This document shows, one piece after another, positions 15,910-56,828 of a stretch of 56,828 nt of DNA. Both the position numbers and the translations under genes were made by a program. The notes under the pieces are model-generated. The model was not told the origin of the DNA. It made no database searches and was given only the letters and a program-made list of their open reading frames with translations. Within the stretch, counting starts at the first letter, position 1. Every line of letters starts with the position of its first letter. Source of the stretch: Minisyncoccota bacterium (GTDB taxonomy: Bacteria > Patescibacteriota > Minisyncoccia > Phycocordibacterales > Phycocordibacteraceae); assembly GCA_017991635.1 (NCBI GenBank), contig JAGOQE010000003.1, positions 1-56,828 on the forward strand, written 5' to 3'.

Positions 15910-15936
15910 GAGTGTTTTCTTGTGTTCCGCCTATTC
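15910..15936 (+). other. 16S precursor processing-stem strand (leader side)
   Basis: These 27 nt pair with 17608-17634, giving 25 Watson-Crick pairs, 1 G-U and 1 mismatch. Confidence 0.65.
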
Positions 15937-15938
15937 TT

Positions 15939-17646
<1,708 letters not shown>

Positions 17647-17662
17647 ATCTATTTGATTATCG

Positions 17663-17710
17663 CGAACAAGGCGGAGTTGTTTTCCTCGGAAAACAACTCC
17701 GCCTTGTTCG
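17663..17710 (+). terminator. Strong hairpin terminator after 16S
   Basis: A stem of about 22 bp, gaacaaggcggagttgttttc / gaaaacaactccgccttgttc, followed by a T-rich tract. Confidence 0.75.
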
Positions 17711-17714
17711 TTAT

Positions 17715-17743
17715 TGACTTTTCATATTTTTTGTTATATTATT
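17715..17743 (+). promoter_or_regulatory. Possible promoter (TTGACT-17 nt-TATTAT)
   Basis: TTGACT at 17715-17720 and TATTAT at 17738-17743. Confidence 0.45.
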
Positions 17744-17778
17744 TGAATATCGTTCACCGTGCGTAAAGGGGATAGCAA

Positions 17779-18009
17779 GTGCCTGAGTTCCTTCAGATGT
17801 GTATGTGTCGCCCTCTGCGACGCTTCAAGTGGTACCGAAATGCCTCGGGCGGTCATTGGATTATGACCGAGTATAAAAAGCCGTCGTCCTGGAAGCCGAT
17901 TTCCGAGCGGCAGTCCGAGGACCATCGCTACAAGACGAACAAGTTTCCTGTTCGTTCGTGGAGTCTTCCGCAGGAAGACCCCACCAAGAAGAAAGAGCCC
18001 TCAGTGTGA
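17779..18009 (+). CDS. rpsU: Possible divergent ribosomal protein bS21
   Basis: 76 aa with a GTG start. MPEF..., LRRFK, then YKKPS 14 residues later, and a basic tail; this mirrors the S21 pattern (..ALRRFKR..17 aa..YEKPS..). AAAGGGG lies 8 nt upstream. Many conserved positions are substituted, so the call is tentative. Confidence 0.4.
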   Translation: MPEFLQMCMCRPLRRFKWYRNASGGHWIMTEYKKPSSWKPISERQSEDHRYKTNKFPVRSWSLPQEDPTKKKEPSV

Positions 18010-18015
18010 GGGAAA

Positions 18016-18043
18016 AGGCGTTACTGACAAGTCAGTAACGCCT
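18016..18043. terminator. Hairpin between convergent small ORFs; the T-run is on the minus-strand side
   Basis: aggcgttactgac / gtcagtaacgcct. On the minus strand it is followed by TTTT. Confidence 0.5.
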
Positions 18044-18370
18044 TCAACGATTGTCTCGCGCATTCTTTTCACACATCTGCGCCATATGCGAATTTTGTTT
18101 CGGTGACGCTTACGCTTCTCCTCAATGGAAGACATTCGAACACCCTGGAGTCGTTTGGATTCACGCGTTGTTCCGCGGTGCACCATGATACTTCCACTAT
18201 AGCAAGGAGCTGGAAAAGGAAGGAAGAGTCTGTTAATATCGTTTGACCGGGCTTTGGGGCATCGTGCGCTTGTATACCGTGTCGAAATGCTCCGCATTTC
18301 TCAGGTATACACGTCGCTCGCTCGGAGTACGTATATAAAGGTAAGAACCTTCATATACGTATCCTCACTC

Positions 18371-18443
18371 GCGCGTGTAGCTCAGTTGGTAGAGCACTCG
18401 ACTGATACTCGAGCGGTCGTAGGTTCGAATCCTACCGCGCGCA
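18371..18443 (+). tRNA. tRNA-Ile (anticodon GAU), CCA not encoded
   Basis: Cloverleaf read by hand: acceptor gcgcgtg/cgcgcgc, D arm gctc-agttggta-gagc, anticodon arm ctcga-ctGATac-tcgag, T arm gtagg-ttcgaat-cctac, discriminator A. Confidence 0.9.
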
Positions 18444-47475: not shown

Positions 47476-47643
47476 TTTTGTTATCCACAACAATTTTTTT
47501 TTCGTAACTTTATTTTTCAACAACGCGCAATAATACATATAGAACGCATTTGCGTTCGTTACGTTGTTTAGATGCAATAGCATGTGAACGATAGAACGTA
47601 AGTGGGTCGACGATTAGTCATAGTCATAATCAACTACAGATAT

Positions 47644-47802
47644 ATGGCAGCTAAGAAAAAAGCAGCAAAGCGTCCAGCAAAGAAAGCGGCAAAGAAGACA
47701 GTGAAGAAAGCCGTTAAGAAGGCTGTGAAGCGTCCTGCAAAAAAGGCAGTGAAGAAGGCGGTTAAGAAGACCACCAAGCGCAAGGCCGCAAAGCGTAAAT
47801 AG
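47644..47802 (+). CDS. Lys/Ala-rich histone H1-like basic protein
   Basis: 52 aa, MAAKKKAAKRPAKKAAKKTVKKAVKKAVKRPAKKAVKKAVKKTTKRKAAKRK. Followed by a strong terminator. Confidence 0.6.
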   Translation: MAAKKKAAKRPAKKAAKKTVKKAVKKAVKRPAKKAVKKAVKKTTKRKAAKRK

Positions 47803-52974: not shown

Positions 52975-53820
52975 ATGTCTTATACTTACAGTATGGATGA
53001 ACTAACAATAGGAGACAAAGTATACATCTCGACAAAACGCGCTGCTGATATTACTGGTTACGCAAAGGATTATGTGGGCCAGCTTTGTCGTGAGGGTCGC
53101 GTTGAAGCAACACTCGTTGGGAGAAGCTGGTATGTGCTCGAGTCTTCAATAAGGGAGCATCGATTTGGTGAAGAAACAAAGAAGACGAGCTCATTTGAGG
53201 AAAAGGAACCGATTTTGAATACCTGGAGTGTGCCCGTATATAAGCCAGAACCTGTAGTAGAAGTCCCTAAGTTAAGCTCAAGAGAAACTCCGCCTGCTCC
53301 TTCTGATGAAGAAACTATTGAGGATATGCAAGCAGCTTGGAAGGAATGGTTTGTAAGACGAGAGGATAAGGAAGTTACTTCTCAGGAAGTGAGTCAGGTC
53401 GAGTCAGAAATTTTTAGCGAGGTCGAAGTAGAGGAGGAAGAGCAAGAATCGTCTACGTATGAAGAGCCAGCACAGGAGTCAGAGTATCTTGACCCTGTGC
53501 CCTTTACGCCTGAAATCGAGACGCCAGTGCCAGTTATGAGGGATTACAGTCGTGAGGAACCCATCTCTATTGAACATGTGGAGCGTGCTGTGAGACAGAG
53601 GGAGGAGGTAGAGCCTGTAGTTGTGCCTCGCGCAAGAAGGTCGAGGAAGGGAGGTGCGGTGAGTCTGGTCATCGTACGCGCAGTACTCGTGGGCGTTATG
53701 CTTGTAACGGTCGCTATAACTCTCATCGGTCTCGGCTTTGCAGATCAGTACGCGTTTAAGCAAGATGCACGGTACGAGGCAGTGAGATTCTTTAGTGGTG
53801 TAAATAGTGTTGAAAAATAA
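52975..53820 (+). CDS. N-terminal excisionase/MerR-like HTH protein with an acidic linker and a C-terminal TM anchor
   Basis: 281 aa. ISTKRAADITGYAKDYVGQLCREGRVEATLVGRSWYV, an Glu-rich middle, and the TM AVSLVIVRAVLVGVMLVTVAITLIGLGF. Confidence 0.65.
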   Translation: MSYTYSMDELTIGDKVYISTKRAADITGYAKDYVGQLCREGRVEATLVGRSWYVLESSIREHRFGEETKKTSSFEEKEPILNTWSVPVYKPEPVVEVPKLSSRETPPAPSDEETIEDMQAAWKEWFVRREDKEVTSQEVSQVESEIFSEVEVEEEEQESSTYEEPAQESEYLDPVPFTPEIETPVPVMRDYSREEPISIEHVERAVRQREEVEPVVVPRARRSRKGGAVSLVIVRAVLVGVMLVTVAITLIGLGFADQYAFKQDARYEAVRFFSGVNSVEK

Positions 53821-53879
53821 AGATATCTCGTCTCGTTTAGACAAGATATACAATAACCAGCTAATAGGATTGGTATAGA

Positions 53880-53927
53880 AGAAACGAAAATGCGCGCAGA
53901 CTAGAGTCTGCGCGCATTTTCGTTTCT
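53880..53927. terminator. Perfect inverted repeat of about 21-23 bp (hairpin), no clean T-run
   Basis: agaaacgaaaatgcgcgcagact / agtctgcgcgcattttcgtttct. Confidence 0.55.
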
Positions 53928-54318
53928 GTTGTGTGGTGCATTACTCCATTTTCAATAGTTACCACGGACTAGGAACTAATAAATATGCATGTTGATGGTT
54001 AGTTAAGACTCTCGGTACTGTTTGAAGTAAGAATCTATCAACGCGTGCCTGTACGTATTCAAAGAGTCTGACACTCTGCTGCATCCTGTTAGAAAGGGAA
54101 CGTATGATCATGAAGAGTGCCTGATGAAGATATTTTTTGTGTATTAATTTCGTACGGGTGCGAGGCTAAGTTAAATTTTTTTAATAGATCTATCGCATCA
54201 TTATCCGAGCGTAAAAAATTATTTTTCATGATGATTTTTTTGTGCAACGCTATCCACACTCGTTTTGATACTTCATCCGAAAAAACAAGTTATTATTTGG
54301 ATAGTTCGGATATCCGAT

Positions 54319-56828
54319 ATGGCTCTTCTCACCAAAAACAAGCTCATCTCAACTAAGGAAGCATCAGAGCTTTCAGGCTACCATCCTGACTACCTTGCGC
54401 GCCTCTGCCGCACAGGAAAGATCGGAGGAATGCAGGTTGGAAGAACCTGGCTTGTTGAGTCAGATTCACTTTCAAAATTTGTTCGTGAACAAGCTGAAAG
54501 GAAGAAAAAAATTGCTGAGGAACTTTCTGAAAAATTGGAAAAGGAATACAAGACTTTTCAAACTCCTGTTTCCACCCCTCGCACAGTTTCTACGACTTCT
54601 TATTCATTTGCTAACTTCTCGGTTTTTGCGCTCTCATTCTTTATCGTAGGACTCTCTGCTCTCACCGCATCTTCTGGTGTTATTTCAAAGGTTGCTCAGG
54701 TTGTTGTTGACGAGGCGCTCGTTGCTTCACTAAGTTTCCATAGCTCACTAGCTGCATTTGAAATGCCTTCAACCACTGGAGCGTCACTCAAAACCGTTGC
54801 CTTTATTTCAAATACAGAAGTACTTCCTGAGGCAGTACAAATCTTGGAAGGAAAGTTTGCCGAAGTGATGGTTGCTGGTGACCCATCGTTAACTTTTCTC
54901 TCACCAGCACCTCTAACTCGCACTGCCTCTGTCGAGCGTGTTGTTGCAGTTGAAAATCCTGGGTTGATGTTTGGAACACTTCTCCGAGATGGAGTTGTTT
55001 CTTTCAACAAGGAAGGTGTTCGTCACCTCGAAGCATTAGTAACGCTTCCTAAGATTGCAGTACGCGCAAAGAACGAATTACTTTCAAATTACGAATTGCT
55101 TGTATACGGTTGGGTTACAGAAACACCACGTGTTGCAAGGTCGGTAGCAACACTTCCACTTGCTCTTGGCGATGCATCACTAGCATTTACTGCACACATC
55201 GTTCCTACTGGGTCATATGTATATACCGTTGGTGTTGAGAAGGTTGCATCAGCGCTTAATGATGCTCCTGCACACGGTGCAGTTCTTGCAAATGATACTT
55301 CTCATCAGGTCGAGAACCTCATCGCGCTTGTTCCGCAGTATTCGTTTAGTAATACAAAACTAAATACCTCATCTCTCGCCTCACTTCCATTTGGTGTTTC
55401 TGGTATCCAAGAAGTGACGAGTACTGCAGCACTCCTTACGTACCAAGGAGTTACCAAATTCTTTAACGGCTTCAGTGCAAAGGTCGCCTCATACTTCTCA
55501 TTTGACGACACAGTTCGTCTTACTGTGGTTTCTGAGGATTCTTTTGTGCCTGAGGCGCCTGTAGAGCCTTCAGAAGCGGGAGGTGAATCAGTTTCAATAG
55601 CGCTTACGAATGAAGGTAATTCTTACTACACGACCATTTCAGGTATTTCAAATGAGGTATTTGTACGCACCTTAAGCGCATTTAAGAAGTCAATCACCGA
55701 TCCTGTATACGCCTCGTTTTATGCTATGGACGAGCGCATCGCAAAGATTGGAGATCGCGTCTCAGCGCTTGAGGATGGCGACACTACTAGTGGTGGAGGT
55801 AGCGGAGGAGCTCTTTCTGGCACAACACTCACTGTTACTGGAAACGGCTCAGTAGGGGGAACGTTCCAGGCAGGAACCACCACAGTAAGTGGTGGACTTA
55901 CCGTTACGGGTGATGCCGCTATTTCAGGAGCACTTACTGTTGGATCATTTTCAGTTTCAAATCTTTCTGTAACTGGCTCTATCTCGGCCCCAACATTTAA
56001 TGCAACGTCAACAACAGCAACCTCAACGTTCTCAGGTGGTTTTGTATTCGGAAACGCTGTAGGTAATTCTCTTTCCGTAAATTCTTTTGTTGCAACAACA
56101 TCAACGATTTCAAATCTCACAGCAACTAATGCAGTGGTAACTAATGGAACTACCACAAACGCTACATCAACAAATCTTTCAGTATCAAATGCACTCACAT
56201 TAACCGGCCTTACACCATCACGCTTGGTGATGGTGAATGGAACTGGTATTGCAACATCAACAAATCTTTCTTCATGGATTTCAGGAACTACTGACCAAAT
56301 CACTGTCACTGACAATAGTGCTGGTGGTATCGCGCTCTCACTTCCAACAACGGTTCGTATCACCAATGCTTCTACGACAGCGCTTTCATCAAATACATTG
56401 GCGGTTGGACAGACAGGAACAACAACAATTTCTTCAACAGGCGCTCTCTACACGCCAACACTTACCGTAGGCGCGCTCTCTGGAATTTTGAAGGCTACTG
56501 CAGGCGTAGTGTCTACGTCACTCATCTCGCTCACTTCTGATGTCTCAGGAACACTCCCTGTTTCTTCTGGTGGTACTGGTACAGGTACTGCACCCACATA
56601 TGGACAGCTTCTGGTTGGTAATGGAAGTGGTGGCTACACGCTTACATCAACATCCTCACTCGGTATTGTTGGCGGAGGAGGTGGAGGTACGTGGGGTTCA
56701 ATCACCGGCACACTCTCCGACCAGACCGATCTTCAGTCAGCACTTGATGCAAAACTCTCTCTCACCTCATGGTACGCAACCACCACTGACGGACTTGATG
56801 AGGGGTCATCAAACCTTTACTACACCCT
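54319..56828 (+). CDS. Large HTH-TM-fibre protein, partial (runs off the window): N-terminal HTH paralogous to 52975, one TM helix, then a Thr/Ser/Gly-rich tail-fibre-like ectodomain
   Basis: Translated by hand in frame 1 from ATG 54319: 836 codons with no stop. It is not in the supplied ORF track because it has no stop in the window. ISTKEASELSGYHPDYLARLCRTGKIGGMQVGRTWLV; TM FSVFALSFFIVGLSALTASSGVI; later LPVSSGGTGTGT and SDQTDLQSALDAKL motifs. Confidence 0.8.
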   Translation, partial: MALLTKNKLISTKEASELSGYHPDYLARLCRTGKIGGMQVGRTWLVESDSLSKFVREQAERKKKIAEELSEKLEKEYKTFQTPVSTPRTVSTTSYSFANFSVFALSFFIVGLSALTASSGVISKVAQVVVDEALVASLSFHSSLAAFEMPSTTGASLKTVAFISNTEVLPEAVQILEGKFAEVMVAGDPSLTFLSPAPLTRTASVERVVAVENPGLMFGTLLRDGVVSFNKEGVRHLEALVTLPKIAVRAKNELLSNYELLVYGWVTETPRVARSVATLPLALGDASLAFTAHIVPTGSYVYTVGVEKVASALNDAPAHGAVLANDTSHQVENLIALVPQYSFSNTKLNTSSLASLPFGVSGIQEVTSTAALLTYQGVTKFFNGFSAKVASYFSFDDTVRLTVVSEDSFVPEAPVEPSEAGGESVSIALTNEGNSYYTTISGISNEVFVRTLSAFKKSITDPVYASFYAMDERIAKIGDRVSALEDGDTTSGGGSGGALSGTTLTVTGNGSVGGTFQAGTTTVSGGLTVTGDAAISGALTVGSFSVSNLSVTGSISAPTFNATSTTATSTFSGGFVFGNAVGNSLSVNSFVATTSTISNLTATNAVVTNGTTTNATSTNLSVSNALTLTGLTPSRLVMVNGTGIATSTNLSSWISGTTDQITVTDNSAGGIALSLPTTVRITNASTTALSSNTLAVGQTGTTTISSTGALYTPTLTVGALSGILKATAGVVSTSLISLTSDVSGTLPVSSGGTGTGTAPTYGQLLVGNGSGGYTLTSTSSLGIVGGGGGGTWGSITGTLSDQTDLQSALDAKLSLTSWYATTTDGLDEGSSNLYYT

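Follow-up and report, generated by a model that had tools for sequence, protein, structure and literature searches.

A giant fibre gene with an N-terminal helix-turn-helix domain, its membrane-bound neighbour and an operator-like promoter element conserved in Paceibacteria

Architecture of genes A and B

The window analysed here, a 56,828-nucleotide stretch of a Minisyncoccota bacterium (contig JAGOQE010000003.1 of assembly GCA_017991635.1), ends in two adjacent genes on the same strand, which we call gene A and gene B. Both begin with a helix-turn-helix (HTH) domain and both are predicted to be anchored in the membrane by a single helix; gene A is small, whereas gene B is the start of a giant, fibre-like gene (Table 1). 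A preliminary description, made without database searches, had drawn attention to this pair and to a palindrome in front of gene B. Mechanical calling of open reading frames (ORFs) gives gene A as 52975-53820 (281 aa). Its start is probably 52993, for a product of 275 aa, since the orthologues all begin MDELTIGDK. Gene B was missing from the ORF list because its frame is open to the last base of the window, as the preliminary description had said, and the 836 codons seen here are the first fifth or less of a fibre gene.

The N-terminal modules of A and B are identical at 18 of 37 positions by BLASTP (49%, E 2e-10), bearing out the shared module that had been noticed by eye. Against Pfam HTH_17, gene B scores 27.6 bits at a cut-off of 27 and a relative of gene B with two HTHs reaches 63 bits, whereas gene A, at 21.2 bits, lies under the cut-off. 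With NCBIfam TIGR01764, gene B scores 22.1 bits, below the cut-off of 28.8, and gene A gives no match. AlphaFold2 (AF2), run for gene A on a 25-sequence alignment, models residues 1-60 with a predicted local distance difference test score (pLDDT) above 90, in the order strand, strand, helix, helix, beta-hairpin, helix. The same fold is predicted for gene B, with residues about 8-78 confident (pLDDT 78-87 over roughly 11-70), in a model of residues 1-520 based on a 4-sequence alignment and uninformative over residues 80-520 (pLDDT about 28). The top Foldseek match for both HTHs is Xis of mycobacteriophage Pukovnik (TM-score 0.69-0.72, rmsd 1.5-1.7 Å); BldC, RdfS and RacA also match both, and GlnR matches gene B. 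The Foldseek E-values are weak for both (0.06 or worse) because the domain is small, at about 50 residues. The best structural matches to both HTHs, Xis, BldC, RacA and RdfS (TM-score 0.6-0.78 on the target), bind inverted repeats or form cooperative arrays on DNA, and differ from A and B in being soluble proteins of 50-180 aa with neither membrane anchor nor ectodomain. Basic residues of the recognition helix and a GR.W wing are conserved in the HTHs. Profiles and models together confirm the predicted N-terminal domains of both proteins as winged HTHs of the excisionase/MerR type, from which we infer a capacity to bind DNA.

A single transmembrane (TM) helix in each protein, with the N terminus in the cytoplasm, is well supported by the distribution of charges. 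Lys + Arg is higher on the N-terminal side of the helix in 115 of 120 gene A relatives, with the reverse in 0 of 120; for gene B relatives the corresponding numbers are 41 and 3. The preliminary description had named a missing HTH fold and an N terminus outside the cell as ways in which it could be wrong. Pfam, AF2 and Foldseek find the fold at both N termini, and the charge counts place the N termini inside.

In gene A, the HTH is followed by an acidic, disordered linker with the conserved motifs TW..P.Y and DMQxAWxEWF and then a basic cluster. AF2 models DMQxAWxEWF as a single conserved helix within this disordered middle and a C-terminal TM helix (residues 222-246), in agreement with the acidic linker and C-terminal anchor first proposed, and the roughly 30 aa that remain after the TM helix are predicted to lie outside the cell. 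The family is large, comprising at least 1,532 clusters at 90% identity, each of about 260-350 aa, and patterns drawn from the gene A alignment recover relatives in 250 species-representative genomes.

Hydropathy and composition likewise agree with the reported anatomy of gene B: an HTH, a Lys/Glu-rich stretch, one TM helix near residue 100 and a Thr/Ser/Gly-rich end. The Lys/Glu-rich helix could be a rigid spacer or a coiled coil. Beyond the membrane, residues 120-515 close with a conserved 'neck' helix (about 445-486) and then a hinge rich in Gly and Thr, after which the fibre shaft begins. The DNA encoding residues 516-836 contains no tandem repeats at the nucleotide level. Residues 783-820 match the tail protein family PHROG 25379 (E 3e-7), and a sequence search of the PDB with the window fragment gives no match.

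The preliminary description had likened this layout to that of ToxR and CadC, with an adhesin in place of a sensor. The topology stands: ToxR, CadC and TcpP also have a cytoplasmic N-terminal domain, a single TM helix and a C terminus outside. The comparison is otherwise an analogy only. Their DNA-binding domain is an OmpR-type winged helix, whereas a Pfam scan of genes A and B finds HTH_17, here a presumed DNA-binding domain, and no Trans_reg_C (OmpR/PhoB-type) domain. Their outside part is a small sensor domain, unlike the tail of gene A or the fibre of gene B, and no sensor family matches the parts of A and B outside the membrane.

Table 1 Features at the end of the window, in order of position
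Feature	Positions	Strand	Basis or remark
Gene A, 275-aa tail-anchored membrane protein	52993..53820	+	orthologue starts, AF2, Lys+Arg counts
Gene A winged HTH, excisionase/MerR type (predicted)	53017..53166	+	HTH_17 21.2 bits, AF2, Foldseek, alignment columns
Gene A C-terminal TM helix, RARRSRK just before it	53656..53730	+	AF2 helix 222-246, confident; positive-inside count
Perfect hairpin, 20-bp stem, terminator-like	53881..53926	+	about 60 nt past the gene A stop
Distal box CTATCCACA (consensus TTATCC[AC]CA)	54250..54258	+	in 71 of 74 gene B promoters, median -71 from the start
Second upstream motif CATCCGAAA (consensus TCCGAAATA), ATCC core shared	54274..54282	+	information profile, alignment
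-10-like box TATTAT (consensus TAnnAT)	54291..54296	+	always 8 nt before the palindrome
Palindrome TTCGGATATCCGA(C), operator-like	54305..54317		ends 1 nt before the gene B ATG, at the predicted transcription start
Gene B, giant type-II membrane-anchored fibre protein (first 836 codons)	54319..56828	+	open frame without stop; ends with the contig
Gene B winged HTH, residues 10-58 (predicted)	54346..54492	+	HTH_17, AF2, Foldseek
Lys/Glu-rich long helix, residues 48-79, linking HTH to membrane	54460..54555	+	AF2; conserved in relatives
Gene B single TM helix, residues 97-119	54607..54675	+	hydropathy; AF2 helix 94-115, low confidence
Membrane-proximal ectodomain, residues 120-515	54676..55863	+	poorly conserved; mostly helical in a low-confidence model
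Start of fibre shaft, residues 516-836	55864..56826	+	51% Thr+Ser+Gly; tail-fibre motifs including WGSITGTLSDQTDLQSALDAKL

The giant fibre family and its chromosomal setting

Low-complexity words swamped word-indexed searches with longer queries (4 matches with the full gene B, 2 with residues 1-520), and the family was collected by exhaustive phmmer with residues 1-140 as the query. This returned 3,662 representative clusters, of which 585 have an E-value of 1e-10 or below. Complete or near-complete relatives span 2,000-7,275 aa, many of the phmmer matches measuring 3,000-7,275 aa, and gene calls on long contigs give relatives of 4,097 and 5,368 aa. In nearly all of them a single HTH module or a tandem pair comes first, followed by exactly one TM helix, at residues 95-250 and with none later; the fibre repeat motifs of gene B recur among the relatives. 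Peptidase_S74 was present in seven of the eight full-length relatives tested, about 420-560 aa before the C terminus, and Bact_surface_Ig-like near the end, also in seven of the eight; the SDxxxK dyad appears in several relatives as SSDERLK. One full-length relative, P0158, matches structures of the MAT fibres, namely 8ond (Bd2133; E 3.4e-7), 8oml (1.7e-3) and 8ojn (8e-3). Together these features give good support for gene B as an N-terminally anchored giant fibre, presumably on the cell surface, and the tail-fibre character that the preliminary description had seen in the ectodomain is borne out by the PHROG match and by S74 in the relatives.

The closest published counterparts are the MAT fibres of Bdellovibrio bacteriovorus (Caulton et al. 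2024, PMC10769870), which are likewise chromosomal and phage-tail-fibre-like. They belong to a bacterium that lives on other bacteria, and have beta-helical shafts and a C-terminal S74 chaperone/protease with SDxxxK. In MAT and phage fibres, S74 enforces trimerization of the beta-helical shaft and then cleaves itself off (PMC10769870). MAT fibres measure about 1,000 aa, whereas gene B relatives are 2-7 times longer, and S74 is not terminal in these relatives but is followed by further domains. The MAT class is defined by a signal peptide and then a conserved beta-rich N-terminal domain of about 130 aa (PMC10769870), in place of which gene B and its relatives have one or two HTHs, a Lys/Glu helix and an uncleaved TM anchor. 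Phage fibres and tailspikes such as T5 pb1 and the K1F endosialidase share with the gene B family Thr/Ser/Gly-rich repeats, the motif W-G-x-I-x-G-x-L-x-x-Q-x-D-L and Peptidase_S74, as well as an N terminus attached to the particle or cell and a distal C terminus. Gene B differs from them in lying in a housekeeping context, in being TM-anchored instead of baseplate-docked and in being many times longer. By analogy with these systems, the gene B fibre would be a homotrimer whose C-terminal chaperone cleaves itself off after folding. Its length would be roughly 100-250 nm, comparable to the cell itself, taking the approximately 0.04 nm per residue of Bd2133 (370 aa in 14 nm), and attachment to a host or surface is its likely role.

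Several variations on the gene B plan were seen. Two HTH stretches are common in the wider family, and one lineage (L004, L005 and L051; for example L004 11021-12160 and 12682 onwards) has two tandem modules of HTH and Lys/Glu helix before the TM helix. The same lineage has an extra gene between A and B that encodes a TM helix and a domain resembling the membrane-proximal region of gene B. At L018 20022-20879, a second, more divergent HTH-TM gene without the palindrome directly follows a complete gene B of 2,690 aa. The best 150 of the representative phmmer matches also include many HTH-TM proteins of 300-500 aa.

The pair occupies a constant chromosomal position. In related contigs the gene order is Wzy_C/TPR, MurB, (a small gene), SecA, Obg, GatB, A, B. 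We fetched 80 species loci, called their ORFs and scored these with phmmer. A gene B-type ORF lies downstream of gene A on the same strand in 74 of the 80, its open frame beginning 231-1,764 bp past gene A (median 554; the spacer in the window is 498 bp), and the survey for a gene-A-like partner that the preliminary description had proposed thus finds the pairing to be the rule. Of the six loci that lack such an ORF, four (L026, L045, L048 and L082) reach the contig end at or within 600 bp, a fifth (L030) ends about 1 kb past gene A, and the sixth is taken up below. No virion genes were seen around this housekeeping synteny across species, and the gene B N terminus, used as query against 2.9 million viral contigs, gave no relative. 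Synteny and homology mark the A-B pair as a conserved part of the Paceibacteria chromosome.

Most copies of gene B are incomplete. The ORF runs off the contig end in 51 of the 74 loci, in 18 loci it is still open past 2,900 codons, and only five ORFs are complete, four of these at 2,022-2,929 aa. Assemblies of these metagenome-assembled genomes (MAGs) break systematically at the giant gene, as expected for so long and repetitive a sequence. Public records mostly hold partial fragments from Paceibacterota/Parcubacteria MAGs, named 'helix-turn-helix domain-containing protein, partial' or 'hypothetical protein'. The same gene B recurs, as far as residue 804, in an independent assembly whose gene A is 97% identical to that of the window, and to this extent the concern of the preliminary description that the long frame might be an assembly chimera is answered.

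A conserved element at the gene B promoter

The 12-bp palindrome flagged earlier is the core of TTCGGATATCCGA. Of the 74 species loci, 28 match it exactly, 23 with a single mismatch and 8 with two, so that 59 retain it with at most two, and most of the remaining loci have recognizable variants such as TTCG[CT]TCAT[CT]CG. In the arms, C7, G8 and C15 are invariant and G16 is altered in only 1 of 40 distinct variants, while the centre varies, a pattern that fits the half-sites of a DNA-binding protein. The palindrome is unique within the window and within each related locus. A few loci seem to have extra copies, which we discounted as tandem duplications of the gene B 5′ end or remnants; at L065 10990-11325, for instance, the promoter and the first ~40 codons of gene B are duplicated in tandem, the first copy being cut by a stop. 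The L004/L005/L051 lineage is without the canonical palindrome and has another inverted repeat there (GAGATA, 17 nt, TATCTC).

The position of the palindrome is set by the promoter. In loci with a TTG start, where the start codon lies 12 nt further on, it keeps its 8-nt distance from the -10-like box, and this fixed spacing ties it to the promoter and not to the start codon. No -35 element was matched, and a sigma-70 scan therefore did not call the TATTAT box. The common layout reads TTATCC[AC]CA, about 20 nt, TCCGAAATA, TAnnAT, TAGTTAA, palindrome, start codon. An exact search of metagenomes with the 17-mer gave 25 matches followed by a gene B-type HTH and 2 more at contig ends in the same promoter context; the other 32 were chance matches in unrelated, often GC-rich DNA. 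No regulon was detected by this exact 17-mer search, the element occurring at gene B promoters only. The palindrome looks like a candidate protein-binding DNA site that is specific to the gene B promoter and overlaps its predicted transcription start. The terminator-like hairpin after gene A suggests that A and B are probably separate transcription units. Two short minus-strand ORFs in the spacer between them (53959-54111 and 54089-54259) are unsupported and probably spurious.

The distal box is identical in sequence to the E. coli DnaA-box consensus. A replication origin in the A-B spacer is not supported, since the spacer has a single box, the same box lies upstream of another gene and no strand switch is seen. 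That other occurrence is an exact TTATCCACA at 47481-47489, between murB and secA and upstream of a gene (47645-47802) whose 52-aa product is basic, rich in Lys and Ala and histone-H1-like. In related genomes the murB-secA position again has this box, together with a CGCGCAATAAT motif.

Elsewhere in the window, the 3′ tail of the 16S rRNA (17366-17400) reads ...GTCGTGGAACATATCCAATCGGAATGAG in place of the usual GGATCACCTCCTTTCT, and the CCUCC anti-Shine-Dalgarno sequence is absent. The upstream regions of about 50 window genes contain no GGAGG, and TATAAT-like boxes often stand just 5-10 nt before the ATG, so near as to suggest mostly leaderless mRNAs. The rRNA genes are unlinked: the 23S 3′ end and 5S lie at the window start (1-1044), and the 16S gene (15936-17393) follows about 15 kb downstream, then tRNA-Ile (within 15936-18443).

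Candidate roles of the tethered helix-turn-helix domains

Which of the two HTHs might read the gene B promoter is suggested by how they vary with it. The exact palindrome accompanies a Cys in the gene B recognition helix in 27 of 28 loci, against 27 of 46 loci otherwise (Fisher p 3e-4, uncorrected for phylogeny), and decay of the palindrome goes with greater divergence of the gene B HTH (mean 63 versus 80 bits, p 0.006, likewise uncorrected). These counts lean towards a gene B HTH that reads its own promoter. The gene A HTH, aligned across more than 100 relatives, is almost invariant family-wide, in loci without the palindrome too, and gene A must therefore have another conserved partner. Gene A may possibly read the TTATCC[AC]CA box, for which DnaA is an equally good candidate.

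Our preferred reading, held tentatively, is that gene B encodes a giant trimeric fibre rooted in the membrane, and that its cytoplasmic HTH, that of gene A or both bind the operator-like element and so control a costly gene; DNA binding, the identity of the binder and the sign of regulation are the parts of it that we infer. The TM helix of gene B is well supported as an uncleaved signal anchor, with all that follows it outside the cell; the fibre would be exported, trimerize from its S74 end and project from the cell. The gene B HTH, held off the membrane by the Lys/Glu helix, would bind the palindrome (TTCGGATATCCGAC) at +1 of its own promoter, and occupancy of that site by nascent or membrane-bound HTH would shut off further initiation. 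Such local negative feedback would cap the output of a gene that costs 12-22 kb of transcription per molecule. Feedback in cis is plausible because the HTH is translated first: were translation coupled to transcription, it would appear close to the promoter of its own gene. The permanently anchored gene A product would serve as partner or co-regulator, perhaps at the TTATCC[AC]CA box.

Several observations weigh against this reading. The window copy of gene B is cut off at residue 836, with the S74 and Ig-like end beyond reach, and trimerization and surface exposure are extrapolated from knowledge of the family. The transcription start is predicted from a -10-like box without a -35 element. 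The covariation of palindrome and HTH is confounded by clade structure, with few independent events, and loss of the palindrome leaves the gene A HTH unchanged. Some HTH folds bind proteins, as that of RodZ does, and those of A and B may not bind DNA at all. The leader sequence GGAUAU is complementary to the unusual 16S tail and may have a translational role. Finally, in the sixth locus without a gene B-type ORF (L050, 11102-14698), the giant that follows gene A lacks an HTH and has an N terminus resembling a cleavable signal peptide (…FSIVSYAPAAHAAE…), so that the HTH is dispensable for making the fibre in at least one lineage.

The last point also fits a different role for the HTHs, as cytoplasmic docking modules that position or cluster the fibre base through a conserved cytoplasmic partner or link A to B, the promoter being read by another factor or by RNA polymerase. 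The near-invariance of the gene A HTH together with the HRFG motif next to it (more than 100 relatives), TW..P.Y and DMQxAWxEWF would be more usual for a protein interface than for a family of transcription factors, and the persistence of the HTH despite palindrome decay points the same way. There is precedent in RodZ, whose HTH binds MreB. RodZ is bitopic like A and B: a cytoplasmic HTH at its N terminus is joined by a linker to one TM helix, beyond which lies an outside domain. It illustrates that tethering to the membrane does not make an HTH protein a transcription factor. RodZ differs in having an XRE-type HTH and a periplasmic DUF4115 domain, and we found no sequence relationship to A or B. 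The closest structures to both HTHs, by contrast, are all of DNA-bound proteins (Xis, BldC, RacA, RdfS and GlnR), the recognition helix keeps its basic residues and the wing its GR.W, and docking leaves unexplained a palindrome that is specific to the gene B promoter and co-varies with the gene B HTH. We regard docking as unlikely, though worth keeping in view.

An extension of the preferred reading would make fibre and HTH a single-polypeptide device, in which assembly, load or host contact is read out as promoter occupancy, perhaps with other sites and together with gene A; we are rather doubtful of it. We put at slightly lower likelihood a related proposal, contact-sensing one-component signalling of a ToxR/CadC-like or Notch-like kind, in which fibre load or host contact alters the HTH oligomer or releases the HTH by proteolysis and thereby switches gene B, and perhaps other genes. 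The topology matches that of membrane-bound one-component regulators, the operator-like element is conserved, and many relatives carry the HTH module in tandem duplicate, which hints that valency is important. MYRF (PMC3742443, PMC3742440) offers a eukaryotic precedent for S74 cooperating with a membrane-tethered DNA-binding domain, combining, as gene B relatives do, a DNA-binding domain, a TM helix and a trimerizing, self-cleaving S74. In MYRF, however, the order is DNA-binding domain, S74, TM, and cleavage frees a DNA-binding trimer, whereas in gene B relatives the order HTH, TM, fibre, S74 means that cleavage would remove only the distal chaperone; the DNA-binding fold of MYRF also differs from the gene B HTH. 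Against contact sensing, no sensor domain was found, thousands of residues separate the HTH from the fibre tip, neither a protease site nor a partner protease was identified, and in the exact 17-mer search the element occurs at gene B promoters only, with no regulon detected.

Tethering of the chromosome to the membrane is highly improbable. On this view the fibre bases would hold the nucleoid, or an origin-proximal region, through low-specificity DNA binding by the HTHs like that of RacA or BldC arrays, the palindrome being incidental or a high-affinity nucleation site. In its favour, both proteins sit in the membrane and have long spacers, their best structural matches include RacA and BldC, the neighbourhood has a conserved DnaA-box-like motif, and in one complete chromosome (L072) the locus lies about 5-26 kb from the record end. 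The element is nevertheless unique in each locus, with no array of sites. Nor is there evidence for an origin: the strands do not switch, and the change in skew falls together with the composition of gene B. The fusion of HTH to fibre is also left unexplained.

We give equally little credence to the idea that the conserved element acts in the mRNA, either as a Shine-Dalgarno-like GGAUAU paired with the altered 16S tail (AUAUCC) or as a 5′ hairpin that controls translation. The 16S 3′ tail does read GGAACAUAUCCAAU, without CCUCC, gene B has a leader while most window genes seem leaderless and lack a Shine-Dalgarno sequence, and GGATAT sits 5 nt before the gene B ATG. It is precisely these central GGATAT positions that vary most, however, while the outer-arm positions C7, G8 and C15 are invariant, and the spacing is fixed to the -10 box and not to the start codon; on variation and spacing together we rejected a Shine-Dalgarno role as the main explanation. 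As for a hairpin, the 4-bp stem has zero compensatory changes, every departure breaks a pair, the fold is no stabler than shuffled sequence (z-score 0.18), and Rfam gives no match in the A-B intergenic region.

That gene B is an ordinary prophage tail fibre, or its long ORF an assembly artefact, is scarcely credible: tail-fibre motifs, the PHROG match, S74 in relatives and a contig that ends inside the gene would suit it, but housekeeping synteny free of virion genes, the absence of relatives from viral contigs, the same gene in independent assemblies and the systematic contig breaks within it (51 of 74) all speak otherwise. The preliminary description had also raised a phage-derived attachment module, which holds for the repeats, with their tail-fibre motifs and S74 in relatives, and fails for the gene as part of a prophage.

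Literature searches found no published description of the HTH-TM-giant-fibre architecture or of the gene A family, in line with the earlier statement that no function was known for it, and a preprint on giant genes (10.1101/2023.11.21.568195) makes no mention of an HTH or of giants in the candidate phyla radiation (CPR). The parts, namely HTH, TM anchor and tail-fibre/S74 domains, are of known kinds; what is new is their combination and the conserved palindrome.

Paceibacteria, like other bacteria of the CPR, are abundant and have yet to be cultured; they are believed to spend their lives attached to other cells, and their genomes encode few recognizable transcription factors. The locus described here is a concrete, conserved candidate for a host- or surface-attachment fibre that is built like a phage tail fibre and rooted in the cell membrane. 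It also offers a candidate regulatory circuit, in which a pair of HTH proteins tethered to the membrane would act with a single, sharply conserved operator-like site. On the practical side, the giant gene is systematically truncated and poorly annotated, since most assemblies break there. If the HTHs do bind DNA, a fibre of several thousand residues with a DNA-binding domain fused to it would represent a new way to couple the cell surface to gene expression. Should the fibre prove to be a device that reaches from surface to chromosome, it would define an undescribed class of fibre-coupled, membrane-spanning regulators and a major regulatory and attachment organelle of Paceibacteria.

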